NCBI GenBank assembly: GCA_016234595.1
Contig: JACRBG010000016.1
Span: 36,608 to 100,607, forward strand
DNA length: 64,000 nt
Direction: 5' to 3'
Source of the DNA: Chloroflexota bacterium
Lineage (GTDB): Bacteria; Chloroflexota; Anaerolineae; Aggregatilineales; J027
The notes under the pieces are model-generated. The model was not told where the DNA came from, made no database searches, and worked only from the letters and a program-made list of their open reading frames with translations. Below, one piece after another: positions 34,202 to 49,010 of this stretch; the stretch's first letter is position 1; each line of letters starts with the position of its first letter. The position numbers and the translations under genes are program-made.

Positions 34202-35245
34202 CTAATCGTCATAGCCCAATTCACGTCGCACCATTTTGGCTCCCGCAACCATCGCCTTGAGTTTTTCACGCCCAACCCAGCGTGCCGTCATACTAAATCC
34301 GCAATCTGAGCTAATCCATACTCGCTTAGGGTCGTTATATTTCAAGATGTCATGAATACGTTCTGCCACAATCGCGGGAGTTTCAACCGCCCTCGCCTTT
34401 ACATCAATTACTCCTGCCGCCAGATATTGATCCTCACGGGCATATTTCATAAACAAATCCGATTGCCACATACCACGATTGGCAAATTCGAGATGAATAA
34501 TATCGGCCTTTAATCGGGGGAAAATCGGCCCCACATGCTCATAAGTGCGATGGGCCACCGCTGGGCGCCCCATAAAATTCCCAAAGCAGATGTGCAAACC
34601 AATCGTCGCCTCAACTCCCTCGACCATTGCGTTAAACATCTCGACAAATTCATCTACCGAGACAAAATCATCAATCGCCGAGGGTTCATCCACCTGAATA
34701 TGGGTTGCGCCCGCCGCTACCACGTCTTTCAATTCCTGATTCAGCAGCGGAACTAGCGCCCATGCCACCTCACGTTTATCTTTATAGACATCAGCGGGGT
34801 CAACCCGAAACGCAAAGGTAACAGGCCCACCCAATGGAGTCACTAATGGTTTTTGGGTGCGTGTGCGAGCATATTCTAACTCCTCGACCAACCCCAACCC
34901 TTTCGGTGTAGCGAATTGATCTGTCGCCCGAAAAGCATTAATCATATCCGGGCCGGGATACCCTAACTGCCGCTCCCACGGGATTTTCTGCACGCCATGA
35001 ATGTAATCATAAAAGCCAACCAGAAAATTAAAGCGCCGCATCTCGCCGTCCGAAATTACATCTACCCCGGCCTCTTCCATTTCCATAATGGCAAGGTTGG
35101 TCGCATCATCAAAGGCCTCGCGGATATCTACCGACCCCATCTCGCCGCGTTTCATAGCATCCCGCACCACAAACAACCAACCGGGTGTGCCATAGCTCCC
35201 AATTACCTGTGTCGGCAAAATAGGCATATTTTGATAGTGATACAT
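34202..35245 (-). CDS. Single-barrel (core) cobalamin-independent methionine synthase-like Zn thiol methyl/alkyl-transferase
   Basis: 347 aa; GSY, DVISDGEMRR, GPVT, IQVDEP; Zn ligands HIC (GLHICFGN), E (HLEFANR) and C (SDCGF). Confidence 0.85.
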   Translation of the reverse strand: MYHYQNMPILPTQVIGSYGTPGWLFVVRDAMKRGEMGSVDIREAFDDATNLAIMEMEEAGVDVISDGEMRRFNFLVGFYDYIHGVQKIPWERQLGYPGPDMINAFRATDQFATPKGLGLVEELEYARTRTQKPLVTPLGGPVTFAFRVDPADVYKDKREVAWALVPLLNQELKDVVAAGATHIQVDEPSAIDDFVSVDEFVEMFNAMVEGVEATIGLHICFGNFMGRPAVAHRTYEHVGPIFPRLKADIIHLEFANRGMWQSDLFMKYAREDQYLAAGVIDVKARAVETPAIVAERIHDILKYNDPKRVWISSDCGFSMTARWVGREKLKAMVAGAKMVRRELGYDD

Positions 35246-35263
35246 AAAATTCCTTCCTAAATT

Positions 35264-36247
35264 TTATTCAATAGGTTTAGTCAAGCCCGTTCGTGGATAG
35301 TGGTAACCCCGAATCAGGCGGTCTTCTTTATAGATGTACCACGGGCACGGTGCGTTATGGTCAAGGGTATGATCCAGTGGCCGCAGCAGATAGCCTCGTT
35401 TGCGCCCCGGCAGCCATTCCATTGCGATTGCACAATGGGCGCAGTACCAATGCACACCTTCTTTTTGCCAAGTCCACAAATGGCTTTCTTGATTAGTGCC
35501 ATGCAGCGTAATTTCATAGCTGTGCCGCCCGGTTTCAGGATCGCCACGCCGCACCACCCCGCCGCTGCCACAAGGGTCAAACGCGACCATGAAGCGATCT
35601 CCCTGATCTTCCACAATCACATCGCCCCGCCGCTGCCCCCCACTAAAATGGCCTCCACGCATTCCCTCCACTGTCAGGGCAACTTTTTCCCACGGCGTCA
35701 TGTTGTCCCATGCCGCATACCGATCTCCCCAAATACTCTGATGGGTATGCAAAACCGTGTCCAGTACCGCTTCTTCTTGCCATGTCTCGGCGATATACGA
35801 CAGTTGATCTTGCACCCATGCCACCAACACATCATGCACATTCAAAAAAGCTAATCGCATCCGTTCCAACCATTTCAACACCTCGGCATCATTGTTTACA
35901 GCCAATGCTTTGAGGCTGTTCTCGCACTCAGTCACACCAAAGGGGTATGTCCAGTAAGTCCGCATCATACCCTTCGAGGCCGATTCAGCTTGCGCCTCCA
36001 TCGCTCCCGATTTGAGAACAATGTACCGCTGAATATCTTGCAGCCATGTCGTCATGATGTGGTGCATAATCCGCATTTCTTCATGGAAATAACGCACCAA
36101 ATCCGCTGCCAAATCCCACCGCCCCTCGGCAATCGCTTCTTCGGCCAGCGTCTGCGACGACACTCCCATCGTTTCGATATCATCTAGGCGCAGCACCCGC
36201 CCTAGCGTTTTGGAATGTTCTAGTTTGATATGGTCAAGTCGGTTCAT
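35264..36247 (-). CDS. Conserved hypothetical protein with Cys/His motifs
   Basis: 327 aa ORF co-oriented with and 18 nt upstream of the MetE-like gene; motifs MRGGH, DPCGSGG, WYCAHC, CPWYIYK. Confidence 0.7.
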   Translation of the reverse strand: MNRLDHIKLEHSKTLGRVLRLDDIETMGVSSQTLAEEAIAEGRWDLAADLVRYFHEEMRIMHHIMTTWLQDIQRYIVLKSGAMEAQAESASKGMMRTYWTYPFGVTECENSLKALAVNNDAEVLKWLERMRLAFLNVHDVLVAWVQDQLSYIAETWQEEAVLDTVLHTHQSIWGDRYAAWDNMTPWEKVALTVEGMRGGHFSGGQRRGDVIVEDQGDRFMVAFDPCGSGGVVRRGDPETGRHSYEITLHGTNQESHLWTWQKEGVHWYCAHCAIAMEWLPGRKRGYLLRPLDHTLDHNAPCPWYIYKEDRLIRGYHYPRTGLTKPIE

Positions 36248-36311
36248 AATAATTTTGTCTCTCGCAAAACATGATTTTTAGGTAGTTTTTTATCCCGTAG
36301 GCAACCTAGGT

Positions 36312-36342
36312 AAAAGAGAGCGAGGGGAGGGAACTCGCTCTC
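36312..36342 (-). terminator. Intrinsic terminator-like hairpin after the SDR gene
   Basis: GAGAGCGAG-9nt-CTCGCTCTC stem with TTTT on the minus strand. Confidence 0.55.
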
Positions 36343-36353
36343 CTGAGAAACAA

Positions 36354-37184
36354 CTAATTCATTTCCATCCCGCCATCCACATTCAACGCTTGTCCGGTGA
36401 TGTAATCCGCATCTTCCGAGCAAAGAAATGCCACGGCGGCGGCGATATCTTCTGGTTTGGCGGCACGTTTTAACGGCACTTTATCCACCGTGTTTTGAAT
36501 CCACTCGCCTTTTTGCATCCCAAATCGAGCCGCTTGGGTCTTGTCAATATCTTCCCACATCGGCGTGGGAACAACACCGGGGCAGATGGCATTCACATTG
36601 ATGTTATATTGCGCCAGATAGAGCGCGGCACTTTGGGTCATGCTAATGACGGCCCACTTTGCAGCAGAATAATGCGCGGCATAGGGGCGACCTTTGCGAC
36701 CCGCCACCGACGAAAAATTGACAATCTTGCCATAGCTATGTTCCGCTTTTCCGGCAGATTTGACCTCTTCGGGAATTTGGGCCACCATCTGCATAGCCAC
36801 GGCTTGCAAGCAGAAAAACAGGCCACGTTGATTGACCCGTTGCAGCCAATCCCATTTTTCGGGGGTCAGGTCAAACAACGGCAGGGTTTCTAAGACCCCG
36901 GCATTATTGACCAGAATATCAATCTGCCCAAATTCCTGAACGACATCTTTGACCATTTGATTAATCTTATCGGTATCACCAATATCCACTGGATAGGCCA
37001 ATGCGCGTGGGCCAGTCGCGCTGATTTCATCGGCGACCGCATGGGCATTCTCGGCCTTATATTCAGCGATAACAACATGTGCCCCCTCTTGAGCAAGACG
37101 TATGGCGATGCCTTTGCCAATCCCTTGCCCTGCGCCTGTGACAATAGCAACTTTTCCTTTTAGACGATTTGCGACAGGTGCCAT
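36354..37184 (-). CDS. SDR family oxidoreductase (polyol/sugar dehydrogenase-like)
   Basis: TGAGQGIG, NNAG, YSAAK, CPGVVPTPMW, YITGQALNVDGG. Start moved to ATG 37184. Confidence 0.9.
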   Translation of the reverse strand: MAPVANRLKGKVAIVTGAGQGIGKGIAIRLAQEGAHVVIAEYKAENAHAVADEISATGPRALAYPVDIGDTDKINQMVKDVVQEFGQIDILVNNAGVLETLPLFDLTPEKWDWLQRVNQRGLFFCLQAVAMQMVAQIPEEVKSAGKAEHSYGKIVNFSSVAGRKGRPYAAHYSAAKWAVISMTQSAALYLAQYNINVNAICPGVVPTPMWEDIDKTQAARFGMQKGEWIQNTVDKVPLKRAAKPEDIAAAVAFLCSEDADYITGQALNVDGGMEMN

Positions 37185-37188
37185 GGGG

Positions 37189-38262
37189 TTATCCTTGAAT
37201 CTCAGAGGGGCGGACCGAACGATTTTCTTGGGCAGAGAGATACGCCGCATTGACCACCCGCAGTGTATTCAGATTATCTTCGGTGCTAGTCGCTGGGACA
37301 CTATCGGTTTCAATGGCCCGCATCAAACCAGCCATTGGCCCAACAAACGCATCGGGAATCCACATCTCATCCAACGCCAACGTCACCACCCCACGCCCTT
37401 TTTGCCGATATTCCAGCGTGTCGGGGCGTCCGGCTGGATAGTTATACATCAGGCCAATCGTGCCCTCAATTGCACCTTCTGTCCCGATAAATTTAAAAAG
37501 CGCTAAGGTCTCGCCATGAATGTTGTAGTGATTGACCGCCACCAACACTTGCAGACCATTGGCATAATCCATGACCGTGACTGTTTTAGTTTCGGCCTTC
37601 ACGTTGCCCTGATTGGCATATTTAGCATGGCGGCTCGTCACCCATTCCGGCTCACCAAACAGAAAACGCAGCGAATCAATATAGTGGATGCTATGGAACA
37701 TTACTTCTAAGCGGGGCGAGGACGCCAACCACGGCCACATATGCCAAGGTGTCTCGCAACTCACTTGGATTTGAGCATCAGTGGGTTGACCAATCCAACC
37801 CTTTGTAATCATTTCTTTGGCAGCGGCAATGCCTGCATCCCACCGCATTTGATGATTAATGGCTTGTTTGACCCCGGCTTTTTTGGCGAGTTCCACCGTC
37901 TTGACTGCGTTGGAGAACTCATCCGAGAGGGGTTTTTGGCACAGCATATGCTTTTTCGCGGCGGCAACCTTCTCTACAATGCCAAGTTGATGCCAAGGTT
38001 GCACCGCAATATCCACGATTTCCACTTTAGGATCAGCCAATAATTCATCAAGTGAGGTGTAGACTGTAGGGATGTCCCATTGTTTCGCCAAGGCCTGTGC
38101 TGCTTCGGGGTTAATGTCATAACAAGCCACGACATTAAATCCAGCTTTTTTATAGGCGGGCATGTGGGCATATTGGACGATACCTCCACAACCTACAATC
38201 CCGATACCAAAATCTTTTTTCTCAGGCAGCTTAGGCCGCCAATCAATATTTAAGACTCCCAT
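37189..38262 (-). CDS. Gfo/Idh/MocA-family NAD(P) oxidoreductase
   Basis: GIVGCGGI, HMLCQKPL, HSIHYID. Start moved to ATG 38262. Confidence 0.9.
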   Translation of the reverse strand: MGVLNIDWRPKLPEKKDFGIGIVGCGGIVQYAHMPAYKKAGFNVVACYDINPEAAQALAKQWDIPTVYTSLDELLADPKVEIVDIAVQPWHQLGIVEKVAAAKKHMLCQKPLSDEFSNAVKTVELAKKAGVKQAINHQMRWDAGIAAAKEMITKGWIGQPTDAQIQVSCETPWHMWPWLASSPRLEVMFHSIHYIDSLRFLFGEPEWVTSRHAKYANQGNVKAETKTVTVMDYANGLQVLVAVNHYNIHGETLALFKFIGTEGAIEGTIGLMYNYPAGRPDTLEYRQKGRGVVTLALDEMWIPDAFVGPMAGLMRAIETDSVPATSTEDNLNTLRVVNAAYLSAQENRSVRPSEIQG

Positions 38263-38281
38263 TTTTTCATTCCATCGCTTA

Positions 38282-39121
38282 CTACAGGTTGTAAAATTTA
38301 GTTGCCGTACCACCTAGCACCGCATCAATTTCAGACTGCGAGCGCCCCGCAAGGCACTTGTTGGTTTCGGCCCACACTTTGGCATAATCGCCCGCCAAAA
38401 TTGCCACCGGCCAATCGCTGCCAAACATCAACCGATCCGCTCCAAAAATTTCAAAGGCATAGTCCACATATTTTTGCAGGTCTTTGGCTGACCAATTCAC
38501 GGGGTCAGCCGTGGCCGTATTGAGCCCCGAAACCTTAGCATAAACTTGCGGATAGCCAGCCGCCGCCTTCATTTGGGAGGCCCAAGGCTCCCATTCCCCA
38601 CTAGCAATAGGAGGTTTGGCAAGATGATCAATTACAATTTTTAAGTTTGGCACTTTTTCGGCCAATATGGGAACATGCTTGAGATGGTTGGGGAAAACCG
38701 CCACCACATCAAACGTCATATTGAACGAGGCCAATACTTTTAGTCCCTCAATAACCACATCCTGTACCACCCAATCGGGGTCAGCCTCGGTATGGATGAG
38801 ATGCCGTATCCCTTTAAAAATTCGATTTTGGGTGTATTTCTCCAACGACTTGGCAGTTTCATCTGGTCGGAGCAGTGGAACCCAACCAACCACTCCACCA
38901 ATCCACTTGAAAGTAGCCGCTGTCGCCAACATATAGTCAGTGTCTTCGTAGGAATCCATTGACTGCACCAAAACAGTTTTATCAATGCCAGCCGCCTTGA
39001 CCTGTGGCTCTAATTCGGGGGCTTCAAACGTGCGGTAAATAGGGCCATATTCGGGCACTAGCCACGGATAGGCCACTTTTTCGAGATTCCAAAAATGTTG
39101 ATGGGTATCAACCTTGGTCAT
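38282..39121 (-). CDS. Amidohydrolase_2 family, sugar-lactone lactonase-like (L-fucono-1,5-lactonase type)
   Basis: DTHQHFW, GIRH, IDHLAKP, KVSG, RLMFGSDWPV. Confidence 0.85.
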   Translation of the reverse strand: MTKVDTHQHFWNLEKVAYPWLVPEYGPIYRTFEAPELEPQVKAAGIDKTVLVQSMDSYEDTDYMLATAATFKWIGGVVGWVPLLRPDETAKSLEKYTQNRIFKGIRHLIHTEADPDWVVQDVVIEGLKVLASFNMTFDVVAVFPNHLKHVPILAEKVPNLKIVIDHLAKPPIASGEWEPWASQMKAAAGYPQVYAKVSGLNTATADPVNWSAKDLQKYVDYAFEIFGADRLMFGSDWPVAILAGDYAKVWAETNKCLAGRSQSEIDAVLGGTATKFYNL

Positions 39122-39157
39122 GGGATTATCCTCCTAAACTAAAAAATGCTCTATACG

Positions 39158-40525
39158 CTATAAATTCAATACACGATCCACAAACACCGCTGCCAGCCCG
39201 GTATATTGTTCGGGATTGAGCAGGGTCGCTAACTTAGCCGCGTCAATATGAGCTGTCACTCGTTCATCAGATGCAAGGCAGTCTAAAAAAGGTCGCCGTT
39301 CTTCAACCGCTTGCATCGCATTGGCATACACCACATCATGCGCCTCTTGTCGCCCGATATGCTGGCCCAATTCAAACATCACTCGTTCGGCCAACAGCAA
39401 TCCATGTGTAATATCCATATTGCGGCGCATTCGCTCAGGATAGACTTGCAAACCGCGTAACACGCGCAAGGTCAATTCCATCGCCCCGTGTGCCATGATG
39501 CACAACTCTGGTAGATAGGCCCATTCCATATGCACCGACGACCAGTCGCGCTCATGTTCGTTATAGAGCAGGGTATCAATCGCAGTCGTAGCGTGCTGAC
39601 GGCATAATCGGGCCATCGCCAAAATCGCTTCACATATCATCGGGTTGCGTTTTTGAGGCATGGTGCTGCTGCCAACCTTGCCCATTTCAAAGGGTTCTTC
39701 CACCTCGCCAAATTCTTGTTTCTGCAAATGAATCACTTCGTTGGCGATGCGCCCCATTAATGCAGCAAGCATAGCAATATGAGTAGCAAATTCTGCTAAG
39801 CCATCCCGCGAGGTATGCCATGCAATCGGCGGGGTATAGAGGCCCAATTCATCCAGCACGGCCTTTTGGATAGCGATGCCATCTACCGCTAATCCCACCG
39901 GAGAGCCCTGTGTGACCCCCGCCAATGTACCAACTGCCCCGCCAAACTCACCCATCAACACCCGATGTTCACTAGTCTGCCAGCGTTCGCGGTGACGGTG
40001 CATCTCAGCTAGCCATACCGCCACTTTAAACCCAAAGGTCGTCGGAAGGGCTTGCTGACCATGTGTTCGCCCCGCAATAGGAGTATCTCGATGAGTCTGG
40101 GCCAATTGGCTCATCGCATCCATCAGGTCATCCATCGTTTGCCCAAAGAGTGCCGAGGCATCACGAATTTGCAGCACCAATGCTGTATCCATCACATCTT
40201 GCGTGGTCGCGCCCCAGTGCACATAGCCGCCCGCCTCACCCTGACAGCGCTTAGAAAGCTGCCAGATGACCGAGACCAATGGATGAACCGTATCGTCAAT
40301 GCCTTTTTTGATGGCGCTCGTGTCCATATTCTCGGCGCGGGCTTGGCGGGTAATTTCGGCGGCAGCTTCAGTCGGAACCAAGCCTAATTTGGACTCGGCA
40401 CGGGCAAGGGCGGCTTCAAAGTCCAACCACTTTTGCAGCAGATTGAGATCGTCAAAAACCGCCCGCATAGCAGGTGAGCCAAATAGGTCTTTAAAGAAGA
40501 GGGAGTCAATCACATTCGAGGGCAT
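39158..40525 (-). CDS. Fumarase/adenylosuccinate-lyase superfamily lyase (PcaB/Scl-like, probably not housekeeping PurB)
   Basis: HWGATTQD, GRTHGQQA, signature GSSTMPQKRNP, EHERD, and ASL C-terminal GRQEAH. Confidence 0.85.
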   Translation of the reverse strand: MPSNVIDSLFFKDLFGSPAMRAVFDDLNLLQKWLDFEAALARAESKLGLVPTEAAAEITRQARAENMDTSAIKKGIDDTVHPLVSVIWQLSKRCQGEAGGYVHWGATTQDVMDTALVLQIRDASALFGQTMDDLMDAMSQLAQTHRDTPIAGRTHGQQALPTTFGFKVAVWLAEMHRHRERWQTSEHRVLMGEFGGAVGTLAGVTQGSPVGLAVDGIAIQKAVLDELGLYTPPIAWHTSRDGLAEFATHIAMLAALMGRIANEVIHLQKQEFGEVEEPFEMGKVGSSTMPQKRNPMICEAILAMARLCRQHATTAIDTLLYNEHERDWSSVHMEWAYLPELCIMAHGAMELTLRVLRGLQVYPERMRRNMDITHGLLLAERVMFELGQHIGRQEAHDVVYANAMQAVEERRPFLDCLASDERVTAHIDAAKLATLLNPEQYTGLAAVFVDRVLNL

Positions 40526-41243: not shown

Positions 41244-41284
41244 TTGACGAATTTGTTGTTAGATTATAAATTATAATTTATAAT
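41244..41284. promoter_or_regulatory. Divergent promoter with a perfect 22-bp palindrome (putative GntR operator)
   Basis: ATTATAAATTATAATTTATAAT (41263-41284) is its own reverse complement. TTGACG at 41244, with TAAATT 17 nt later, overlaps it. Confidence 0.6.
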
Positions 41285-41385
41285 TTGTCGAGTGAGAGGC
41301 AAAGGAGGCCACCCATCCCAATAAATTTTTTTTCAATCCCCATCAAAGAAATGGTTTTATTCAAGAGTAGAGTGGAGGCTTTAAC

Positions 41386-42771: not shown

Positions 42772-42855
42772 AACTTCAGATTGATTTACCATGCAGGGGC
42801 GATACTCCTAGATCGCCTCTGTCTGTCCTGATTATTTGAGAGAAGGAATCTAAAA

Positions 42856-43878
42856 TTGCTTTCCTTATTGACAGAGAGATTTTCCAGTGGCGTTTTTGTC
42901 ATCATGAACGCCTTCACACAAGTCATGGGGATAATTTGGCGACTTTTACCATTTGGATACCTGTGGAATCTTGTGCCCTATGATCGCCGCCGGACGATTT
43001 TCCCCCTGTTGTTAATTGTGCCAACCGTCATCATTATCTTAATGGTTGTCCTGTACCCATTGGGCTATTCGGTCTATGTCAGCTTTACCCCGCTCAACAT
43101 GCTGCGTTATGAAAAGACGTTTCACTTTGAGCAGTCTACCATGTGGCGAAATTACGAGCGCCTAAAGGATGATGAAATTTTCATCCGGTCGCTCAAAAAC
43201 ACCATTTTGTTCCTTGCTGTCACGGTCAATACCGAGTTCGTGTTGGGGTTATTGCTCTCACAATTGATGGCACGGGTAACATGGGGGCAAGGTCTATTGC
43301 GGACCATCCTCATGATACCGATGATGTTTGCCCCTGTATTGGTAGGTTTTCAGTTTGCATGGTTTTTTAATGCCAGCGTTGGCCTAGTCAACAATGCCAT
43401 GACCTCCCTCGGCCTGATGCAACTCAATGATCCCAAACCGTGGTTGGTAGATAAACCAACTGGTATGATTGCGCTGATGATTGCCAGCATTTGGATGAAC
43501 GTCCCGATTATGACCATTATTTTATTGGCTGGCACACTTTCATTGCCCAACGAATTGTACGAAGCCGCTGAAGTGGATGGCGCAGGGTTTCTCAATCAAT
43601 TTCGCCACATTACACTGCCCCTGCTACGACCATTTATCCTCATCGCCTTGACGATTCGTTCACTTGATGTCAGTCGGGCCTATGATATTGTACGGATTAT
43701 GACCAATGGCGGGCCTGCTCATCGTACCGAGATGATCTGGACATATGCCGGTCGTATGGCGATTCGTAGTAACCGCTATGGCATGGCAAGTGCGATCTCG
43801 ATGGCAGGGGTCATTTTGGGGATTTTGTTTACTCTCTATCTATTCCGCCAACTGGTCAAGTCGCGGGTGGTGTATTAA
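42856..43878 (+). CDS. Carbohydrate ABC transporter permease
   Basis: ELYEAAEVDGA, MTNGGP; TM helices. Confidence 0.9.
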   Translation: MLSLLTERFSSGVFVIMNAFTQVMGIIWRLLPFGYLWNLVPYDRRRTIFPLLLIVPTVIIILMVVLYPLGYSVYVSFTPLNMLRYEKTFHFEQSTMWRNYERLKDDEIFIRSLKNTILFLAVTVNTEFVLGLLLSQLMARVTWGQGLLRTILMIPMMFAPVLVGFQFAWFFNASVGLVNNAMTSLGLMQLNDPKPWLVDKPTGMIALMIASIWMNVPIMTIILLAGTLSLPNELYEAAEVDGAGFLNQFRHITLPLLRPFILIALTIRSLDVSRAYDIVRIMTNGGPAHRTEMIWTYAGRMAIRSNRYGMASAISMAGVILGILFTLYLFRQLVKSRVVY

Positions 43879-44747
43879 TGTTAACCAATGCCGTCCGCCC
43901 CTATCGCCGTTTGCGCCAGACCATTTACAACATTGTGGCGTTCACCATTTTGATTATTGGTGCATTACCAGCGGTCTGGATCATTTTTACAGCCTTCCGA
44001 CCCGGTAATGAAGTCAATATCCGTCCGGCGATTTGGATTCCTCATCGGCTTACATTGGATGCGTTTGAAAAACTTTTTGGGGGAAACACCGATGTCGCCG
44101 CCGCTGTGCCAGTACGGAGTTATATGTGGAATTCCATTCGGGTTGCAACCCTCAGTACCTTGATCGTCCTAATTCTAGGCACGATGGCGGGCTATGCCTT
44201 TTCGCGTTTTAAATTTCGTGGGCACACCCTCATCTTTTTATTCATCATGTTGTCGCGCAGTATCCCCGGTGTAGCCCTAAGCTTTCCGCTATTTTTGCTT
44301 ATGCGGAAATACGATTTAGTGGATACCGTGCATGGTTTGGCTTTTGTGTATGTCGCGGTGAATTTGCCTATTTCAGTCTGGCTGATGGATGGCTTCTTTC
44401 GCCAAATTCCACCCGAACTCGACGAAGCCGCTTATATAGATGGCTGTGGCTATTGGACAGCTTTTTGGCGCATTGATTTACCGTTAGCGCTCCCCGGCAT
44501 CTCAGCCGCCGCGATTTTTGCATTTCTGGCATCATGGAATGAATATCAACTTGCCAGTTTAATCACAGGCACACCCGATGCCAAAACCTTTCCAGTTGGC
44601 CTTTATGACTTTACTAGTCAATTTACAGTGGATTGGCGTGGCATGTGTGCCATGTCGGTGTTGATGATTATCCCCGCCGTTGTGTTTGTACTATTGACCC
44701 AGCGCAGCATGATTCGGGGTCTAACATTTGGCGCAATCAAAGGTTAA
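43878..44747 (+). CDS. Carbohydrate ABC transporter permease
   Basis: ELDEAAYIDG, SWNEY, GLTFGAIKG. Confidence 0.9.
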   Translation: MLTNAVRPYRRLRQTIYNIVAFTILIIGALPAVWIIFTAFRPGNEVNIRPAIWIPHRLTLDAFEKLFGGNTDVAAAVPVRSYMWNSIRVATLSTLIVLILGTMAGYAFSRFKFRGHTLIFLFIMLSRSIPGVALSFPLFLLMRKYDLVDTVHGLAFVYVAVNLPISVWLMDGFFRQIPPELDEAAYIDGCGYWTAFWRIDLPLALPGISAAAIFAFLASWNEYQLASLITGTPDAKTFPVGLYDFTSQFTVDWRGMCAMSVLMIIPAVVFVLLTQRSMIRGLTFGAIKG

Positions 44748-44754
44748 AAAATCT

Positions 44755-45216
44755 ATGTTAATCAGTTATTGGCATTTTAGTTTTACCGTGGCCGACTTGG
44801 AGCGTTCGATTGATTTTTATACGAACATCATCGGCATGACATTGGTGCATCGGCAGGAGCAATCCAACGAATATACCCGCAAGTTAGTCGCCTACCCCGA
44901 TGCTTCGTTGAAAGTAGCCCAATTGGGGATTGAGAGGATGCCGGGAGTCCGATCAGGTCATTTATTGGAACTAGTCGAATATGTCTCTCCACGTTGCGAC
45001 CCCACCGACACAGCCACCTGTCGCCCCGGCAGTGCCCACCTTGCCTTTCAGGTCGTAGATGCGTGGGCCAAATATCACGAAATGACTGCCAAAGGGGTGC
45101 GTTTTAAATCCGAACCCGTCGCCATCACCGCTGGCATCAATAAAGGCGGCTTTACGTGCTATTTTCTTGACCCAGATGATATTACGTTGGAAATTATTCA
45201 AGCCCCCCCCAGCTAA
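44755..45216 (+). CDS. VOC (glyoxalase/epimerase) family protein
   Basis: HFSFTVADLERSIDFY, LELVEY, HLAF, YFLDPD...LEI with H/E/H/E metal ligands. Start ATG 44755. Confidence 0.88.
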   Translation: MLISYWHFSFTVADLERSIDFYTNIIGMTLVHRQEQSNEYTRKLVAYPDASLKVAQLGIERMPGVRSGHLLELVEYVSPRCDPTDTATCRPGSAHLAFQVVDAWAKYHEMTAKGVRFKSEPVAITAGINKGGFTCYFLDPDDITLEIIQAPPS

Positions 45217-45228
45217 AGGAGCTTATGT

Positions 45229-45468
45229 ATGCCCACCGTCATTATCTACTGGTCACCCGGTAGGAACCCCCAACAAAAAAAAACGGTGATTGAGCAGATT
45301 ACTGACGTGCTGGTGAACGAAGCCAGTGCAAAACAGGAGGATGTACTGGTGATTTTTCAGGAAATTTTGCCCGGTGATTTTGGGCGTGGCGGGCAGGTTA
45401 TCCTCCCATTTGAATCAACTTCCTCTTCAGAAGAAAATAAAAATTTTGAGGACGACAATCATGGTTAA
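45229..45468 (+). CDS. 4-oxalocrotonate tautomerase family protein
   Basis: Catalytic Pro-1 (MPTVII), GR..QQK, V.VIF.E..P.DFG.GG; strong RBS AAGGAG. Confidence 0.85.
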   Translation: MPTVIIYWSPGRNPQQKKTVIEQITDVLVNEASAKQEDVLVIFQEILPGDFGRGGQVILPFESTSSSEENKNFEDDNHG

Positions 45469-45793
45469 AAGATTTGGTCAGGTCAATCGGGTAAGACCCG
45501 AGGTTTTAGAAGAGTACAAACAGATTCATGTCAAAATCTGGCAAGAAATCGAAGACGCCATCCGCGAATCTGGCATCATCAATTACAGCATTTACTATAA
45601 GGATGGCTTTTTGTTTGCCTATTTTGAATATGATGGCCCCGAAGAAGAATTTGCCGCCCGTATGGAAAAACTGGCAAATGCCCCTCGTATGCAAGAATGG
45701 TGGGGAATTACCAAGGCCATGCAAATGCCCTTAGAAACGCGCGCCCCCGGTGAATGGTGGGCGGATATGGAAGAAGTATTCCATCAGGACTAA
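45461..45793 (+). CDS. L-rhamnose/L-fucose mutarotase (RhaM family)
   Basis: EEYKQIH..IW.E, GIINYSIY, LFAYFEY, QEWW, MEEVFHQD. Start ATG 45461. Confidence 0.88.
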   Translation: MVKRFGQVNRVRPEVLEEYKQIHVKIWQEIEDAIRESGIINYSIYYKDGFLFAYFEYDGPEEEFAARMEKLANAPRMQEWWGITKAMQMPLETRAPGEWWADMEEVFHQD

Positions 45794-45799
45794 AACCAC

Positions 45800-47035
45800 A
45801 TGGATATTGTAATGCCCAATATGGGATTTGACGCCCAAGAGGCCCGGATTGTTGAATGGCTAAAAAATCCGGGGGATTTAGTGCGGCGTGGGGATGTCAT
45901 TGCTGTCATCGAATCAGACAAGGCCAATGTTGAATTGGAATCGCTGGGGGATGGGGTTTTATTGGAACAGCTTTTTCCTCCCGATACTTTAGTAAAGGTC
46001 GGCGCAATTATTGCACGGGTTGGGTCACCCAATGAACAGGCCATCGCCCCATCGTCACCAACCCCAACCTTGCCTATGATGGTCGAAGTGTCGCCAGTGG
46101 CCCGCCGTATCGCCGAAGAACACGGCCTAGATTTAGCTGCCGTCACAGGAAGTGGCCCCAGCGGCAAAATTATGCGGCAGGACGTCGAAAAACTCATTCA
46201 ATCGGCCAGTGTCCCTCAGCCATCAAATGGCAAAAAAGGGATCATGGCCCTACCCAAAGTCCGCCAAACTGCCCGTCAATTAGGGGTCTCTTTGGCTGAT
46301 GTCACACCGACAGGACGGCACGGCGAAATTACACTGGCGGATATACAGCAGCGCATTTCAACACCCGCCAGAGAAAAATCTGGTGTGCGTGAGATAGCTC
46401 TGAGCCGGATGCGCCAAACCATTGGGGAACGCTTGCATCGTAGTATGCAAGAAGCCCCCCATTTTTATGTCAGTGGTGAATTTGATTTGGAAGCGGCTCT
46501 GACCCGATTAAAAACGATCTCAGGTGTGCGAGTCAACGATTTGCTGCAATATTTGGTAGTGCAGACCCTCTTGCGTGTACCTGAATTGAATGCCACTTTT
46601 GAAAACGGCCATCTTTATTATCACGAGACAGTGAATCTTGCTATTGCCGTGTCCCTTGAGGATGGCCTCATTACCCCTGTCCTCGCCGACGCTCAACAGC
46701 TTTCCTTACAGGGTATTGCTCAAGCCAGTCGCGCCTTGGTTGAAAGGGCACGTAGCAATCATCTTCACCCATCGGATTTACAATCCGGTACGTTTACCAT
46801 CAGCAATCTGGGGGTAGTCAAACAAGTCGATCAATTTACCGCTGTGATTAACCCGCCACAGGTAGGCATTTTAGCGGTGGGCACGGTTAAACCCCGCCCT
46901 GTCGTCATCAATGGAGGTCTGCATGTGCGTAATACCGTGTATCTGACCCTCAGCGGCGACCATCGCGTGGTGGACGGCATGACACTTGGCAAATTTATGG
47001 CGACCTTCCAAGAAGAATTGGAACGGTTCAGTTAG
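45800..47035 (+). CDS. 2-oxoacid dehydrogenase E2 (dihydrolipoamide acyltransferase)
   Basis: Lipoyl ESDKA, two peripheral-subunit-binding-like segments, TFTISNLG, DHRVVDG. Confidence 0.92.
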   Translation: MDIVMPNMGFDAQEARIVEWLKNPGDLVRRGDVIAVIESDKANVELESLGDGVLLEQLFPPDTLVKVGAIIARVGSPNEQAIAPSSPTPTLPMMVEVSPVARRIAEEHGLDLAAVTGSGPSGKIMRQDVEKLIQSASVPQPSNGKKGIMALPKVRQTARQLGVSLADVTPTGRHGEITLADIQQRISTPAREKSGVREIALSRMRQTIGERLHRSMQEAPHFYVSGEFDLEAALTRLKTISGVRVNDLLQYLVVQTLLRVPELNATFENGHLYYHETVNLAIAVSLEDGLITPVLADAQQLSLQGIAQASRALVERARSNHLHPSDLQSGTFTISNLGVVKQVDQFTAVINPPQVGILAVGTVKPRPVVINGGLHVRNTVYLTLSGDHRVVDGMTLGKFMATFQEELERFS

Positions 47036-47046
47036 GAACAGAAAAT

Positions 47047-48018
47047 ATGACCACAGTACCCGCACTTAATCTGGATTCGCGGCAGTGGATGTTACGGCGG
47101 ATGCTTGAAATCCGCATCGCCGAAGAACAGATTCAAGGCCTGTTTATGCAAAATCTTATTCGCGGCACAACCCATCTCTGTATTGGGCAAGAGGCCTGCT
47201 CAGTTGGGATTGCCCACGCGCTGCAACCCGGTGATACCGTAACCTGTACCTATCGTGGGCACGGTCACGCACTGGCCCTCGGCATGACTATGCAAAAGCT
47301 GATAGCCGAGATGATGGGTAAGGCCAGTGGGGCGTGCAAGGGCAAGGGCGGCAGTATGCACCTGACTGATGCTTCGATTGGCCTATTGGGCGAAAACGCG
47401 ATTGTTGGCGCAGGCCTACCCATCGCAGTTGGCGCAGCGCTATCGGCCCAAGTCAAGGGTGAATCGCGTATTGCCGTAGCCATTTTTGGCGAAGGTGCGA
47501 CCAACATCGGTACGTTTCATGAGGCGCTGAATATGGCAGCTATTTGGAAATTGCCCGTGCTTTTCATCTGTGAAAACAATCTCTATGGTGAATATAGTCC
47601 GATGGAAAACACCACCCCTGTCGCCCATATTGCGGAACGGGCCACGGCCTATAACATCCCCGGCGTGGTCGAAGATGGGCAAGATGCCGAGGCGGTTTAT
47701 GATGCCGTCAAAGAAGCCGCCGACCGCGCTCGATACGGCGAAGGCCCAACCCTCTTGGAACTGAAAACTTATCGCTATCGGGGACATTCGCGCACCGACA
47801 CCGCTCCCTATCGTCGCCCCGGCGAACTAGATGAATGGCTAAAACGTGACCCCATTGATGTGTTGGCCCGCAAGATGATTGCTGATGGACAATTGGATGA
47901 AACCGAATTAGAAGAATTGAAACAAGGCACTGAGCGCTTGGTGTTTGACGCCATTGAGTGGGCCAAAGCCGAGCCATTCCCGCCCATTGAAAGCCTTTTT
48001 GAAGATATTTACGCCTAA
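47047..48018 (+). CDS. TPP-dependent dehydrogenase E1 alpha (acetoin/pyruvate dehydrogenase family)
   Basis: HLCIGQEA, YRGHGH, GKGGSMH, GEGA...CENN, YRYRGHS. Confidence 0.92.
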   Translation: MTTVPALNLDSRQWMLRRMLEIRIAEEQIQGLFMQNLIRGTTHLCIGQEACSVGIAHALQPGDTVTCTYRGHGHALALGMTMQKLIAEMMGKASGACKGKGGSMHLTDASIGLLGENAIVGAGLPIAVGAALSAQVKGESRIAVAIFGEGATNIGTFHEALNMAAIWKLPVLFICENNLYGEYSPMENTTPVAHIAERATAYNIPGVVEDGQDAEAVYDAVKEAADRARYGEGPTLLELKTYRYRGHSRTDTAPYRRPGELDEWLKRDPIDVLARKMIADGQLDETELEELKQGTERLVFDAIEWAKAEPFPPIESLFEDIYA

Positions 48019-48032
48019 AATCGAGGTATGGT

Positions 48033-49010
48033 ATGCCCCAGATGACTTATCGTGAAGCCGTGTGTAAAGCACTGGCTGACGAAATGCGTACAGATGAACA
48101 AGTGATTTTTTTCGGCGAAGATGTGGCTGTAGCGGGCGGTGTTTTTAAAGTCACCCCCGGCCTCTATGAAGAATTTGGCTCCAACCGGGTGCGCGATACC
48201 CCCATCTCCGAACAAGCTATTGTAGGGGCGGCTCTTGGGGCGGCGATTACCGGTCTGCGTCCAGTGGCTGAACTCATGTTTGCCGACTTTGTCTTTGTCT
48301 GCATGGATCAAATCGTCAACCAAGTCGCCAAATATCGTTATATGAGTGGGGGACAATTTACAGTACCATTGACCATTCGGGCGGCCCAAGGCGCTGGGGC
48401 GGGTTTTGGCACGCAGCACTCGCAGTGCGTCGAATCCTTTTTGATGGGTTGCCCCGGCCTAAAATTAGTCGTACCCAGCACCCCTGCCGATATGTATGGG
48501 TTGTTGCGTGGCGCCATCCGTGAAGATAATCCGGTTTTTGTGTTGGAACACAAGCTCCTCTATAACATGACAGGCGATGTACCAGACGATACTGGCCCGA
48601 TGAAATTGGGTGAGGCGCATGTGGTACGTGAGGGCAACGATGTCACTATTGTCTCTACCCAATTAATGGTCCATCGTTCGCTCGAAGCCGCCACGGAACT
48701 AGAAAAAGAGGGGATCTCAGTCGAAGTAATTGACCTACGCTCCTTAGCTCCCCTCGATAAAGACACAATTTTAGATTCGGTGGCAAAAACCAATCGCCTT
48801 GTGATTGTTGAAGAAGCACCTCATTCGGCTGGTTGGGGTGGTGATATTGTGTCACTGGTCGCCGATGAAGGCATCTACTGGCTGGACGCTCCCATTAAAC
48901 GGGTCAATATGGGACAGGCCTTGGTCGCCTATAGCCCGCCGCTAGAAGATACGGTTGTACCCAATGTGGGTCGCATTGCCGAGGCGGTTCGCAATGTAGC
49001 GCAACGATAG
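48033..49010 (+). CDS. TPP-dependent dehydrogenase E1 beta
   Basis: GEDV, DTPISEQ, ELMFADF, QHSQ, EHK, IDLRSL.PLD. Confidence 0.92.
   Translation: MPQMTYREAVCKALADEMRTDEQVIFFGEDVAVAGGVFKVTPGLYEEFGSNRVRDTPISEQAIVGAALGAAITGLRPVAELMFADFVFVCMDQIVNQVAKYRYMSGGQFTVPLTIRAAQGAGAGFGTQHSQCVESFLMGCPGLKLVVPSTPADMYGLLRGAIREDNPVFVLEHKLLYNMTGDVPDDTGPMKLGEAHVVREGNDVTIVSTQLMVHRSLEAATELEKEGISVEVIDLRSLAPLDKDTILDSVAKTNRLVIVEEAPHSAGWGGDIVSLVADEGIYWLDAPIKRVNMGQALVAYSPPLEDTVVPNVGRIAEAVRNVAQR

Follow-up and report, generated by a model that had tools for sequence, protein, structure and literature searches.

The 16 genes at positions 34202 to 49010 of the window, a 64-kb stretch of DNA from a Chloroflexi bacterium, form two divergent operons that very probably constitute a single conserved functional unit, whose enzyme set, including an uncharacterized protein family, appears to match no described pathway. 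The locus would be a variant of oxidative sugar catabolism with a lower pathway unlike any described route. The explanation we favor as a whole, at a probability of about 0.4, is of one GntR-repressed unit having the upper and lower pathways proposed below.

An earlier note on this DNA had described 16 genes around a palindrome, and an ORF check located all of them at the same coordinates, including the tautomerase ORF at 45229-45468. The family assignments held as well. The left arm (minus strand) encodes a GntR/FCD regulator, a Lyase_1 plus ADSL_C protein, an Amidohydro_2 protein, a Gfo/Idh/MocA oxidoreductase, a short-chain dehydrogenase (SDR), an ORF lacking any Pfam match, and a Meth_synt_2 (core MetE) protein. 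The right arm (plus strand) encodes an SBP_bac_1/8 protein, two BPD_transp_1 permeases, and glyoxalase/VOC, 4-oxalocrotonate tautomerase (4-OT), RhaM, E2, E1α, and E1β proteins. Searches with Pfam and NCBIfam found no kinase, no enolase, IlvD, or UxaA-type dehydratase, no aldolase, and no FAH family in the cluster, bearing out what the note had said of kinase, dehydratase, and aldolase.

Between the arms lies a perfect 22-nt inverted repeat, ATTATAAATTATAATTTATAAT, at 41263..41284. The best-matching promoter-like sites of the region, with 11/12 and 10/12 matches, form a divergent pair (41291..41263 on the minus strand and 41256..41284 on the plus strand), and the repeat overlaps the -10 box of each. 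A 20-nt degenerate form of the palindrome, allowed up to two mismatches, matched the 64-kb window at this site alone; with up to three mismatches there were five matches, four of them overlapping the site, versus 0.07 expected. The regulator gene (40525..41211, -; PF00392 and PF07729) is divergent from the transporter operon and is kept beside the lyase gene in 32 of 49 related loci. Upstream of gntR, the motif (up to four mismatches) was found in 27 of 30 related loci versus 16 of 600 control windows. The palindrome is thus the probable GntR operator common to both arms, through which GntR would repress one catabolic unit made up of two divergent operons.

The neighborhood was then compared across 49 Anaerolineae-type loci whose lyase is at least 59% identical to that of the window, many of them cut by contig ends. 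The counts were RhaM 28, E1α 23, E1β 23, E2 22, lactonase 21, SDR 21, Gfo 20, tautomerase 20, Unk (the Pfam-less protein) 18, MetE 18, and SBP 17. The gene set is clustered rather than scattered, far beyond chance, and occurs in several shuffled and interleaved orders, such as E1a-Lac-E1b-Gfo-SDR-MetE-Unk in L088 and L093; its recurrence in shuffled orders indicates that the genes are functionally linked. Among 301 sampled genomes of the class, Unk was present in 10, a lyase orthologue in 15, and both in nine, sometimes on different contigs, although this co-occurrence in 9 of 10 overstates the significance since the relatives are not independent. These results support reading the locus as one catabolic unit, conserved and under common regulation, for which no characterized pathway accounts in full.

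The genes for uptake and the initial oxidations point to the kind of sugar involved. The locus encodes a CUT1-type substrate-binding lipoprotein (41386..42771, +; SBP_bac_8 and SBP_bac_1), whose best PDB match was MalE3 (85 bits), with trehalose/maltose, sulfoquinovosyl-glycerol, and sorbitol binding proteins matching more weakly. It is followed by a MalF/UgpA-like permease (42856..43878, +; BPD_transp_1, NCBIfam matches below cut-offs) and a MalG-like permease (43878..44747, +; BPD_transp_1, MalG model 130, cut-off 261). No ABC ATPase gene lies in the cluster; MalK-like genes are found elsewhere in the genome. The RhaM-family mutarotase (45461..45793, +; PF05336, 102 bits) is L-fucose-mutarotase-like, its best PDB matches being L-fucose mutarotase 7byw/7byu (88.5 bits), with no L-rhamnose mutarotase above 35 bits. 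The Amidohydro_2 protein (38282..39121, -; PF04909, 151.5 bits) resembles L-fucono-1,5-lactonase, its sole NCBIfam match (187.5, below the cut-off of 400); its best PDB match was 4dlf with 120 bits, versus 38 bits for a PDC-hydrolase-like chain. The Gfo/Idh/MocA NAD(P) oxidoreductase (37189..38313, -; PF01408, PF22725, and PF02894) passed no NCBIfam cut-off and matched 5uhw (88 bits) and then 1,5-anhydro-D-fructose reductase (76 bits) in the PDB; it is a candidate aldose 1-dehydrogenase. One relative (L092, genome G265) has the order SBP-permeases-GH29 α-L-fucosidase-GHL6-Lac-RhaM-Lyase, and in another (L019) FGGY kinase, class II aldolase, and fucose-isomerase-like genes lie between two modules. 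RhaM, the lactonase, and these GH29 fucosidase and FucI/K/A-like genes of relatives suggest that an L-fucose-like sugar is oxidized to the aldonate. We lean slightly toward a fucose-like sugar as the substrate, the best matches all being below curated equivalog cut-offs.

From these similarities we infer an upper pathway in which the CUT1 ABC system would import an L-fucose-like sugar, 6-deoxy or otherwise C6-modified and of L-galacto configuration, the mutarotase would equilibrate its anomers, the Gfo/Idh/MocA enzyme would oxidize C1, and the lactonase would open the lactone to the aldonate. That an imported sugar is converted to an aldonate, as the note had proposed, is most likely, given the mutarotase, the lactonase, and two dehydrogenases; the sugar may also be a modified one, as the note had suggested.

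Unk (35264..36247, -; 327 aa), listed in the note as a Cys/His unknown, is no minor member but part of the deepest conserved core of the cluster. Profile searches assigned it to no Pfam or NCBIfam family; its 322 homologues are without exception annotated as hypothetical, and at E ≤ 1e-3 the family comprises 661 clusters of 50% identity. In the AF2 model (pLDDT 91), Unk is predicted to be an N-terminal helical bundle followed by a C-terminal α/β domain. Foldseek found no PDB match at E ≤ 0.001, and the best VIA Z values were 6.7 (whole protein) and 5.5 (C-terminal domain). Of its candidate metal ligands, only His200, Cys226, His271, and Glu277 are invariant, a pattern resembling a mononuclear metal site rather than a Cys cluster. 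Its depth is seen in a distant clade whose Unk shares about 30% identity with that of the window: among 27 metagenome loci, 17 have the lyase, 20 the SDR, 16 E1, and none MetE. There a CMLE/Tad1-type lyase gene points away from LacI, Unk, SDR, and fused E1ab genes, with Unk, SDR, and E1 contiguous; genes for an SMP-30 lactonase, additional SDRs, and an ADC-like protein are found close by. The lactonase, regulator, and transporter families accompanying the set differ from those of the window. The Unk, lyase, SDR, and E1αβ families thus travel together well outside this lineage, and it is on these four that we prefer to rest the lower pathway; in the window, E1αβ has an E2 of its own.

The lyase (39158..40525, -; 455 aa, Lyase_1 and ADSL_C) carries the GSSTMPQKRNP signature of a fumarase/ASL-superfamily protein and falls in the CMLE/Tad1 clade. 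Its best PDB matches were 3c8t, named fumarate lyase (362 bits), trans-aconitate decarboxylase Tad1 (327 bits), and CMLE (307 bits), whereas purB-type ASL scored at most 234 bits; true purB and argH genes are located elsewhere in the genome. To our knowledge, all characterized members of this clade act on di- or tricarboxylates. The homologues in Proteobacteria have TctC/TctABC, MmgE/PrpD, and FAD-oxidase genes as neighbors, which, together with the clade, suggests that the lyase prefers carboxylate-rich substrates.

The SDR (36354..37250, -; adh_short, 198 bits) probably starts downstream of the ORF start, the domain beginning at residue 33. It is of the acetoin-reductase/2,3-butanediol/sorbitol-dehydrogenase type, matching acetoin reductase 1geg (202 bits), diacetyl reductase/L-2,3-butanediol dehydrogenase (192 bits), and sorbitol dehydrogenase (177 bits); the best NCBIfam model was L-iditol 2-dehydrogenase (271, below the cut-off of 338). 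The thiamine enzyme comprises E2 (45800..47035, +; lipoyl, E3-binding, and catalytic domains PF00364, PF02817, and PF00198, all NCBIfam E2 models below cut-off), E1α (47047..48018, +; PF00676, 283 bits), and E1β (48033..49010, +; Transket_pyr and Transketolase_C), whose score is above cut-off for the loose subfamily model NF006667 alone (372, cut-off 321). The best PDB match of E1α was mitochondrial-type PDH E1α (232 bits), versus 128 bits for the branched-chain type, and this PDH/acetoin character suggests a small substrate. A housekeeping PDH role was rejected, as E1α scores 355 against the TIGR03182 equivalog cut-off of 394 and the housekeeping paralogue, scoring 427, is on contig C24. In eight of the class genomes sampled, E1 genes are located no more than 10 kb from those for lyase, Unk, or MetE. 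The earlier note's assignment of a dedicated 2-oxoacid dehydrogenase to the unit therefore stands, while action of E1/E2 on a 2-keto-3-deoxy acid is a conjectural role.

The SDR relatives, the PDH/acetoin type of E1α, and the Unk-SDR-E1 contiguity of the distant clade suggest an acetoin-type logic, and we tentatively prefer, as a possible lower route, thiamine-dependent cleavage of an oxidized 6-deoxy tail followed by the lyase and tautomerase. The SDR would oxidize the penultimate carbinol of the deoxy-aldonate (CH3-CHOH-) to a methyl ketone, and the thiamine enzyme would cleave the acetoin-like end, releasing a C4 aldehydo-acid together with an acetyl unit, in the form of acetyl-CoA in clusters that have E2. 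Further conversion, for which Unk is a possible enzyme, would precede the lyase step, in which a hydroxy-dicarboxylate or hydroxy-oxo acid would be dehydrated in fumarase-like fashion. The 4-OT-family protein (45229..45468, +; PF01361, 45.9 bits, cut-off 22), which has Pro directly after the initiator Met and a 58% identical paralogue on contig C12, next to a different sugar ABC system, would ketonize or decarboxylate the enol or β-keto product, a part that the ADC-like protein may take in the distant clade. Counting against this route, oxidation of the C4 aldehyde is required, for which an enzyme is at hand only if it is Unk or Gfo. So do the L092 arrangement discussed below, a locus with GntR-Lyase-RhaM-Taut-E2-E1ab in a genome devoid of Unk (L036, G304), loci with lyase but no other cluster genes (5 of 29 loci of at least 19 kb, the majority from a sub-clade in which M81/MlrC and cupin genes are neighbors), and E2-E1a-E1b standing alone in a genome of the same order (G229; 52/70/77% identity), which suggests that this operon can work outside the cluster.

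On the route developed from the earlier note, the lyase itself would dehydrate the aldonate or lactone by β-elimination in place of an enolase, IlvD, or UxaA enzyme, the 4-OT and VOC proteins would ketonize the enol, and oxidative decarboxylation of the 2-keto-3-deoxy acid by E1/E2 would yield an acyl-CoA. Fumarase-superfamily chemistry involves a proton α to a carboxylate and a leaving group on the β carbon, and is compatible with aldonate dehydration. The cluster lacks the known dehydratase families, the GntR-Lyase-Lac adjacency of the window recurs in many loci, and the Pro-1 tautomerase adjoins the lyase in L021, L026, L036, L040, and L048. Furthermore, Lac-RhaM-Lyase are contiguous behind the GH29 gene of L092, a 19-kb locus that lacks E1, SDR, and Unk in a genome (G265) with no Unk match, in keeping with a lyase step that immediately follows the lactonase. 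Against this stand the di-/tricarboxylate associations of the clade and of the proteobacterial neighborhoods, an E1 that is not of the branched-chain type, and the absence of E2 from many variants. The scheme also leaves Unk and the acetoin-reductase-like SDR, the most constant partners, without a role, and we regard it as doubtful.

An unlikely alternative keeps the logic of the diketo-hydrolase pathway with non-homologous replacements: the lyase would be fuconate dehydratase, the SDR 2-keto-3-deoxyfuconate 4-dehydrogenase, and Unk a metal-dependent 2,4-diketo-acid hydrolase replacing FAH and yielding pyruvate and lactate, with the pyruvate consumed by E1/E2. The Unk-SDR-E1 adjacency would mirror consecutive steps, the conserved His/Cys/His/Glu and several invariant Arg of Unk are as expected of a carboxylate-binding metal enzyme, and an SDR serves this step in the canonical pathway, according to PMC11199699. 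However, the best solved relatives of the SDR are acetoin, butanediol, and sorbitol dehydrogenases, and no chain named L-2-keto-3-deoxyfuconate 4-dehydrogenase was among the best 60 of its 172 PDB matches. Conventional dehydratase and FAH-hydrolase genes are already present on contig C1, and a second, pathway-specific PDH would be unusual beside that on C24.

Least probable is a mosaic of independent modules for sugar uptake and oxidation, an acetoin/butanediol-type E1/E2 with SDR, and a methionine-synthase-like pair, which would accord with the modules found apart in G229, G304, and L092 and with the variable presence of MetE-like, VOC, and aminotransferase genes, but is countered by the one operator serving both arms, by the E1 genes that flank the lactonase gene in L088 and L093, by the re-formation of the Unk/lyase/SDR/E1 set in the distant clade, and by the presence of the lyase in 9 of 10 Unk genomes, including some that have it on another contig.

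The remaining genes are accessory. The single-domain VOC/glyoxalase-I-like protein (44728..45216, +; PF00903, 57.8 bits; glyoxalase I model 49, cut-off 120) is encoded in just 6 of the 49 loci. The core MetE-like Zn alkyl/methyltransferase (34202..35245, -; 347 aa, PF01717, 96.5 bits) falls below the cut-offs of all NCBIfam methionine-synthase models (best 213, cut-off 406) and best matches 3rpd (128 bits). Its H-x-C, E, and C Zn-ligand positions and IGS, DGE, and DEP motifs align with MetE and are invariant in 19 orthologues. It is the sole PF01717 gene of the genome, which also has a full MetH, and among the 301 class genomes the strict MetE-like gene is confined to those with Unk. Listed by the note as part of the set, it is a member here and an optional insert that certain variants carry; in other relatives a class-III aminotransferase replaces or joins it. 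Both probably handle a substituent or side product.

Sixteen open reading frames were called at 34202-49010, exactly as an earlier note made from the DNA alone had listed them, and Pfam and NCBIfam searches confirmed each of the families that it had assigned. Pfam identified on the minus strand a GntR/FCD regulator with wHTH and FCD domains (40525-41211), a lyase with Lyase_1 and ADSL_C domains (39158-40525), an Amidohydro_2 lactonase (38282-39121), a Gfo/Idh/MocA oxidoreductase (37189-38313), an SDR (36354-37250), and a core MetE (34202-35245). Between the last two lies a gene for a 327-residue protein of no family (35264-36247), here called Unk. The plus-strand arm encodes, again by Pfam, a binding protein and two permeases of the CUT1 sugar type (41386-44747), a single-domain VOC protein (44728-45216), a 79-residue 4-OT tautomerase with proline after the start methionine (45229-45468), RhaM (45461-45793), and the E2 (45800-47035), E1alpha (47047-48018), and E1beta (48033-49010) of a 2-oxoacid dehydrogenase. 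In agreement with the earlier note, no kinase, dehydratase, or aldolase was found among the 16 proteins with Pfam and NCBIfam, and these databases gave no enolase-, IlvD/Edd-, or UxaA-family dehydratase at E ≤ 0.001. Family membership, the lyase signature, the zinc site of the MetE-like protein, the thiamine motif of E1alpha, co-location and co-occurrence, and the shared operator were computed directly.

The flanks are unrelated to the cluster: upstream is a xanthine-dehydrogenase-like pair, and thioredoxin-like, lspA, and ileS genes follow downstream. The pair directly upstream (30366-34149, plus strand) consists of an FAD-binding subunit and a fused 2Fe-2S/molybdopterin subunit of the xanthine dehydrogenase family; its top NCBIfam match is the selenium-dependent xanthine dehydrogenase (798, below the cut-off of 830), and its adjacency to the cluster is not kept in relatives. 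The thioredoxin-fold protein (49070-49519, plus strand) has an N-terminal extension of ~40 residues, and its gene, which shares the strand of E1beta, starts 60 nt past it. Co-transcription is possible; the gene was found in none of the related loci.

The palindromic operator proposed earlier proved to be a perfect 22-nt inverted repeat in the intergenic region (41263-41284). It covers the -10 hexamers of both top promoter-like sites in the 15.8-kb region, one on each strand, and a palindrome over both -10 boxes is the classic arrangement of a repressor operator common to divergent operons. The sole match in the window to a degenerate 20-mer of the motif at up to 2 mismatches was the palindrome site; at up to 3 mismatches there were five matches, four of them overlapping the palindrome, versus 0.07 expected. 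The same motif lies 5' of the GntR gene in relatives whose GntR is no more than 46-90% identical. At up to 4 mismatches it was present in 27 of 30 upstream regions versus 16 of 600 windows drawn at random from these loci, some of which will overlap a real motif site, and since the motif was derived from these same sequences, the counts describe conservation rather than provide an independent test. The regulator has the features of a GntR/FCD repressor, namely wHTH and FCD domains and an inverted repeat that is conserved in the promoter region of its gene, and the palindrome is predicted to be an operator common to both arms.

Independent hints of several kinds suggest that the substrate is L-fucose or a close analogue. 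RhaM scored 102 bits on PF05336, above the cut-off, and its top solved relative is L-fucose mutarotase (88.5 bits), with rhamnose mutarotases at 35 or less. The lactonase (PF04909, 151.5 bits) had as both its sole NCBIfam match and its top structure L-fucono-1,5-lactonase, with 187.5 bits against a cut-off of 400 for the equivalog NF052480 and 120 bits for 4dlf. In one relative (L092), genes for a GH29 alpha-L-fucosidase and a GHL6 protein lie behind an ABC system and directly upstream of the lactonase, RhaM, and lyase genes. In another (L019), FGGY kinase, class II aldolase, and fucose-isomerase-like genes sit between the two modules. No GH29 gene was found in the window's genome. The upper steps would then be uptake, mutarotation, oxidation at C1 by the Gfo/Idh/MocA protein, and hydrolysis of the lactone to an aldonate. 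Homology is the basis for the predicted functions of all cluster genes, and most top matches lie below equivalog cut-offs.

The 4-OT (PF01361, 45.9 bits against 22) begins M-P-T-V. By a manual count on the translation, made without a reference alignment, Arg-11 and Phe-50 are retained and position 39 is Leu; we take these three positions to be members of the canonical residue set. A 4-OT paralogue of 58% identity is encoded on another contig of the same genome (C12:5904-13133, locus L105), where it adjoins a 547-residue fucose-isomerase-like protein and a second set of binding protein and permeases, a further hint of a fucose-like substrate. The same pairing of 4-OT and isomerase-like protein was observed in L034, along with two URO-D-like proteins.

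The non-phosphorylative L-fucose pathway proceeds through a mutarotase, L-fucose dehydrogenase, a cog3618 lactonase, and fuconate dehydratase, followed by either an aldolase or KDF dehydrogenase and an FAH hydrolase. The cluster resembles such oxidative 6-deoxyhexose pathways in its L-fucose-mutarotase-like RhaM, its L-fucono-1,5-lactonase-like lactonase, its NAD(P) dehydrogenases, and its lack of a kinase. It differs in that their dehydratase, aldolase, and FAH hydrolase are missing, and in their place are a lyase of the CMLE/Tad1 clade, Unk, 4-OT, the VOC protein, and E1/E2. A conventional oxidative sugar-acid cluster is present elsewhere in the window's genome (C1:8488-19272, locus L103), with an enolase-type galactonate-dehydratase-like gene, a YjhG/YagF dehydratase (1088 bits), two FAH-family proteins, two SDRs, three Gfo/Idh/MocA proteins, and an aldehyde dehydrogenase. 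Contig C1 is the only one in the genome with enolase-type and YjhG/YagF-type dehydratases. Because these conventional genes are present on C1, the cluster at 34202-49010 probably serves a different or decorated sugar.

The lyase scored 169.7 bits on PF00206, matched PF10397, and carries the superfamily signature GSSxMPxKxN as GSSTMPQKRNP. Its top structures were an uncharacterized "fumarate lyase" (3c8t, 362 bits), the trans-aconitate decarboxylase Tad1 (327), and the 3-carboxy-cis,cis-muconate cycloisomerase CMLE or PcaB (307), with true ASLs at 234 or less. PurB was rejected as its identity, since purB lies on contig C36 of the genome and argH on C39. The lyase passes the old TIGR00928 cut-off (367 against 326) but scores higher on three other models, all of which it fails; the purB product of C36, 27-28% identical to the lyase, scored 392 on TIGR00928 and 185 or less on the other models. 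The lyase shares its fold and signature with PcaB and Tad1, its top named solved relatives, but is found in a carbohydrate context without protocatechuate or itaconate pathway genes nearby. The PcaB equivalogs were missed (NF006554, 427 against 595; TIGR02426, 303 against 356), and the annotated region of the window holds no pca genes. Every curated equivalog cut-off for CMLE, XcbD, and nitrosuccinate lyase was missed, which places the lyase in the fumarase/ASL superfamily but outside these families and PurB.

Unk had no family match in Pfam or NCBIfam, and hmmscan at E ≤ 10, where the HMMER filters discard very weak matches, returned only DUF5648 (E = 0.06). The AF2 model (pLDDT 91) shows a helical bundle at the N-terminus followed by an alpha/beta domain at the C-terminus. 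Foldseek against the PDB gave nothing at E ≤ 0.001, a wide VIA search gave a best Z of 6.7 to helical-bundle parts only, and the C-terminal domain alone (model pLDDT 80.6) reached 5.5. No convincing structural neighbor thus came from these searches of predicted models, by which a new fold is not proven. Across 39 sequences of down to 33% identity, His200, Cys226, His271, and Glu277 are invariant, a pattern that fits a mononuclear metal site. The idea of a four-cysteine cluster protein was rejected, as Cys269, Cys272, and Cys301 vary across the family. The nearest clusters in the ESM Atlas were all "hypothetical", one entry at 0.84, at most a lead, having B12-binding_2 in 12% of its members; Pfam detected no B12-binding domain in Unk. 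The family numbers 661 clusters at 50% identity in public data, and those members looked up were all "hypothetical".

E1alpha is of the mitochondrial-PDH/acetoin type and has the thiamine motif. On the PDH equivalog TIGR03182 it scored 355, below the cut-off of 394, while a paralogue on contig C24, with E1beta and E2 alongside, scored 427. The cluster E1/E2 as the housekeeping PDH was accordingly rejected. Since the genome has this PDH on C24, a third set on C10, and a single lipoamide dehydrogenase (E3) on C33, the cluster set is an extra one, and the earlier suggestion of a dedicated 2-oxoacid dehydrogenase stands; by these scores it is a paralogue of PDH type and not the PDH. The top structures for the SDR were acetoin reductase, diacetyl reductase/L-2,3-butanediol dehydrogenase, and sorbitol dehydrogenases. 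The acetoin dehydrogenase system comprises AcoABCL and a BudC-type butanediol dehydrogenase/acetoin reductase, and the cluster is similar in having a heterodimeric PDH-type E1alpha/beta and an SDR like acetoin reductase/2,3-butanediol dehydrogenase, with E3 shared. Its genes are, however, embedded in sugar-oxidation genes, and interleaved with them in relatives; many variants lack E2 or have a fused E1alpha-beta; and the acetoin-type E2 model covers only the lipoyl part of the cluster E2, whose 2-oxoacid_dh catalytic domain is normal.

A scan of species-representative genomes for the lyase gave 79 loci, 49 with a lyase of at least 59% identity and 29 with one of 39-47%, the latter nearly all labelled proteobacterial. 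All but one of the 49 are named as Chloroflexota/Anaerolineae metagenome-assembled genomes (Aggregatilineales, Phototrophicaceae, Ca. Flexifilum), the exception (L033) being labelled "uncultured Pleurocapsa sp." Gene presence in the 49 loci, many of which end at contig ends, was scored by tblastn at no less than 40% identity and 50% coverage: GntR was found in 32, RhaM in 28, E1alpha and E1beta in 23 each, E2 in 22, the lactonase and SDR in 21 each, Gfo/Idh/MocA and 4-OT in 20 each, Unk and MetE in 18 each, the binding protein in 17, and VOC in 6. In the 29 of these loci that span at least 19 kb, each main gene was present in 16-20, and five had none of E1, Unk, MetE, the lactonase, and RhaM. 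Absences weigh little, as many loci are fragments. Since gene order varies widely among the Anaerolineae loci, co-location is more likely to reflect selection than an inherited order.

None of the cluster genes was found in any of the loci with a 39-47% lyase. These homologues (L053-L082; for example L054:3839-14075, L056:6262-14266, and L070:5600-15142) lie in conserved clusters of their own that are likewise uncharacterized, with MmgE/PrpD, TctC/TctABC, FAD-linked oxidase, and IclR genes as neighbors; in two alphaproteobacterial loci the neighbors are genes for GntR, hydantoinase A/B, a class-III aminotransferase, and alanine dehydrogenase. A sister sub-clade at 60-62% identity (L046, L047, and L049-L052; lyase at 10001-11347 in each), to which most lyase-only loci belong, is also without the cluster; an M81/MlrC-like gene of the peptidase family and a bicupin flank its lyase. 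One of its members, L052, additionally has SDR-E1beta-E1alpha-E2 and a DeoR/sugar-binding regulator.

Among 301 evenly sampled genomes of the class, Unk was present in 10 and a lyase orthologue (E ≤ 1e-120) in 15. Both were present in nine, in several of which the two genes are on different contigs; the single genome with Unk and without the lyase is 85% complete. The strict MetE-like orthologue was in 8 genomes and in one more split at contig ends, all of them Unk genomes, and a weaker paralogue occurred without Unk in seven others. E1beta lay less than 10 kb from the lyase, Unk, or MetE in eight of the sampled genomes; as a phyletic marker by itself it was useless, as 100 of the 301 have paralogues at ~50% identity. 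The distribution is patchy, since Unk and the lyase were in none of ten sampled genomes of the window's own order, and no statistical weight is given to the pattern because relatives are not independent.

A metagenome scan seeded with distant Unk homologues returned 80 loci, 27 of which form a clade with Unk only ~30% identical to that of the window. These 27 loci, many of them short, included the lyase (31-38% identical) in 17, an SDR in 20, E1 in 16, and MetE in none. Their layout is lyase, divergent from LacI, Unk, SDR, and E1, the latter a single fused alpha-beta protein of ~668 residues, and the neighbors are an SMP-30 lactonase, more SDRs, a DUF5107 or weak aldose-epimerase-like gene, an ADC-family gene, and amino-acid-type transporters. 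The lactonase, mutarotase-like protein, regulator, and transporter have thus been swapped for unrelated families, with Unk, lyase, SDR, and E1 retained, which suggests that these four share one pathway downstream of a sugar lactone. We take this retention as the strongest evidence for placing them in one pathway.

The lower route that we prefer, with a rough probability of 0.3, builds by analogy on the known preferences of each family. The acetoin-reductase-like SDR would oxidize the CH3-CHOH end of the deoxy-aldonate, and the acetoin/PDH-type E1 would then cleave the alpha-hydroxy-methyl-ketone as acetoin dehydrogenase does, releasing a four-carbon aldehydo-acid and an acetyl unit, which in this genome would become acetyl-CoA through E2 and the shared E3. 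After a conversion perhaps carried out by Unk, the lyase would dehydrate a malate/tartrate-like acid to an enol, which 4-OT would ketonize or decarboxylate; in the distant clade an ADC-like protein may do so. This route accounts for the occurrence of E1 without E2 and for the contiguity of Unk, SDR, and E1. Loci L088 and L093 are arranged E1alpha-lactonase-E1beta-Gfo-SDR-MetE-...-Unk, and L091 lactonase-cupin-E1alpha-E1beta-lyase-SDR-TIM barrel, all three without E2. No aldehyde-oxidizing step is assigned in the route, and the minimal arrangement of L092 contradicts it in spirit.

The earlier note had instead proposed that the lyase replaces the dehydratase on the aldonate and that E1/E2 acts on the 2-keto-3-deoxy acid. 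Galactarolactone cycloisomerase, which functions with an Amidohydro_2 lactone isomerase, and 3,6-anhydrogalactonate cycloisomerase are ring-openers of the enolase superfamily. The cluster resembles these systems in chemical logic, with an Amidohydro_2 enzyme followed by a candidate beta-eliminating "cycloisomerase" leading to a 2-keto-3-deoxy acid, but the candidate belongs to the fumarase/ASL superfamily; we hold this proposal to be possible, if doubtful. A diketo-hydrolase route with Unk as the hydrolase we consider unlikely. Pfam found no aldolase or PF01557 FAH hydrolase among the 16 proteins, and the four FAH genes of the genome are on contigs C1, C47, and C7. The cluster might also be a mosaic of independent modules. 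Partial sets do occur: G304 has GntR-lyase-RhaM-4-OT-E2-E1alpha/beta with no Unk in the genome, G265 has lactonase-RhaM-lyase with no Unk and the rest of the set not nearby, and G229, of the window's own order, has E2-E1alpha-E1beta alone (52/70/77% identity) beside a DeoR-type regulator. Set beside the four genes retained in the distant clade, a mosaic seems quite improbable. An aromatic pathway of the protocatechuate/gallate type, with the Gfo/Idh/MocA protein read as LigC-like and the Amidohydro_2 protein as LigI-like beside a tautomerase and a hydratase, is very improbable, as the transporter, the mutarotase and lactonase top matches, the LacI-type regulators, and the fucosidase neighbors indicate a sugar and no ring-cleavage dioxygenase family is conserved.

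The MetE-like protein has zinc ligands (His-x-Cys, Glu, and Cys) that align with those of MetE structures and are invariant in 19 orthologues, and it keeps the IGS, DGE, and DEP motifs, whose residues we presume to serve the homocysteine site. It is below the cut-offs of all nine curated methionine-synthase equivalogs (best NF003317, 213 against 406). Although it is the only PF01717 gene in the genome, a full MetH is also present, and the role of housekeeping methionine synthase was rejected on that ground. MesD and MesX form a folate-independent "core" methionine synthase pair, as described by Price et al. (2021; PMC7857596), and the two systems share a core MetE with intact zinc ligands and no folate-binding domain beside a ~325-residue protein of no known function. 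Unk differs from MesX in having no match to DUF1852/PF08908 even at E ≤ 10 and in often occurring without a MetE-like gene, and the genome here has MetH. As many loci have Unk without that gene, Unk was rejected as an obligate MetE partner; a complex prediction for the two scored 0.00, which gives no verdict and is uninformative either way.

What lies between SDR and Unk differs among the metagenome loci of the Anaerolineae type: MetE, a class-III aminotransferase with MetE, the aminotransferase alone (L151, L166-L169, and L171), or nothing (L170 and L178). With such variable content the MetE-like and aminotransferase genes appear accessory. No orthologue of the aminotransferase was found in the window's genome. 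Together with the amino-acid-type transporters of the distant clade, these genes leave room for methylated or aminated deoxy sugars, which may be substrates of some variants.

A wider reading combines these points, and we regard it as rather unlikely to hold as a whole. Unk would found a new mononuclear-metal enzyme family with a His/Cys/His/Glu site and no known fold, and with the CMLE-type lyase, SDR, and stand-alone E1alpha-beta would constitute an unknown C-C-cleaving pathway for deoxy-sugar acids, found in at least two distant bacterial groups. The MetE-like protein and/or class-III aminotransferase of Anaerolineae would adapt it to substituted deoxy sugars, either by taking off an amino group or by an oxygen- and corrinoid-independent transfer of an N- or O-methyl group to homocysteine. 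Such a reading, if true, would provide a new means of sugar demethylation.

Oxidative, non-phosphorylative sugar pathways are thought to share one template of dehydrogenase, lactonase, dehydratase, and aldolase or hydrolase. The cluster retains the upper half of this template, and its whole lower half is replaced by families with no known link to sugar acids; one of them, Unk, is wholly without annotation. As far as can be judged from sequence, the gene combination, which includes a sizeable uncharacterized enzyme family, is new, and oxidative sugar catabolism as a type of system is known; a literature search, which did not extend to subscription-only papers and preprint supplements, found no description of the combination. 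With 661 clusters and the same three partners across ~70% sequence divergence, Unk is a well-defined target for enzyme discovery. The hosts belong to Anaerolineae that are abundant in sludge, mats, and soils; most are uncultured, and little is known of their carbon sources. Should the MetE-like and aminotransferase inserts act on methylated or aminated deoxy sugars, they would bear on the anaerobic recycling of decorated sugars, to our knowledge an open question.

Other genes accompany the set in individual relatives. In L090, an OpuAC-type (glycine-betaine family) binding protein and a fused permease (10999-14139) lie between Unk and E1beta-lactonase-E1alpha, hinting that a quaternary amine may be a substrate for that variant. 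PIN, DUF433, and DUF5615 toxin-antitoxin-like genes are inserted between the MetE-like gene and Unk in L088 (9803-10189 and 13401-16319), and the same insert encodes a 753-residue protein with a Meth_synt_2 part at its C-terminus. One cluster variant has, in five loci, a further conserved open reading frame of ~364 residues without a Pfam match that lies just 5' of the lyase (L089:7114-8208 and L093:14241-15332, with matches in L090, L148, and L185). A protein with TIR and FGE-sulfatase-like domains adjoins the cluster in one relative (L027:18426-19784).
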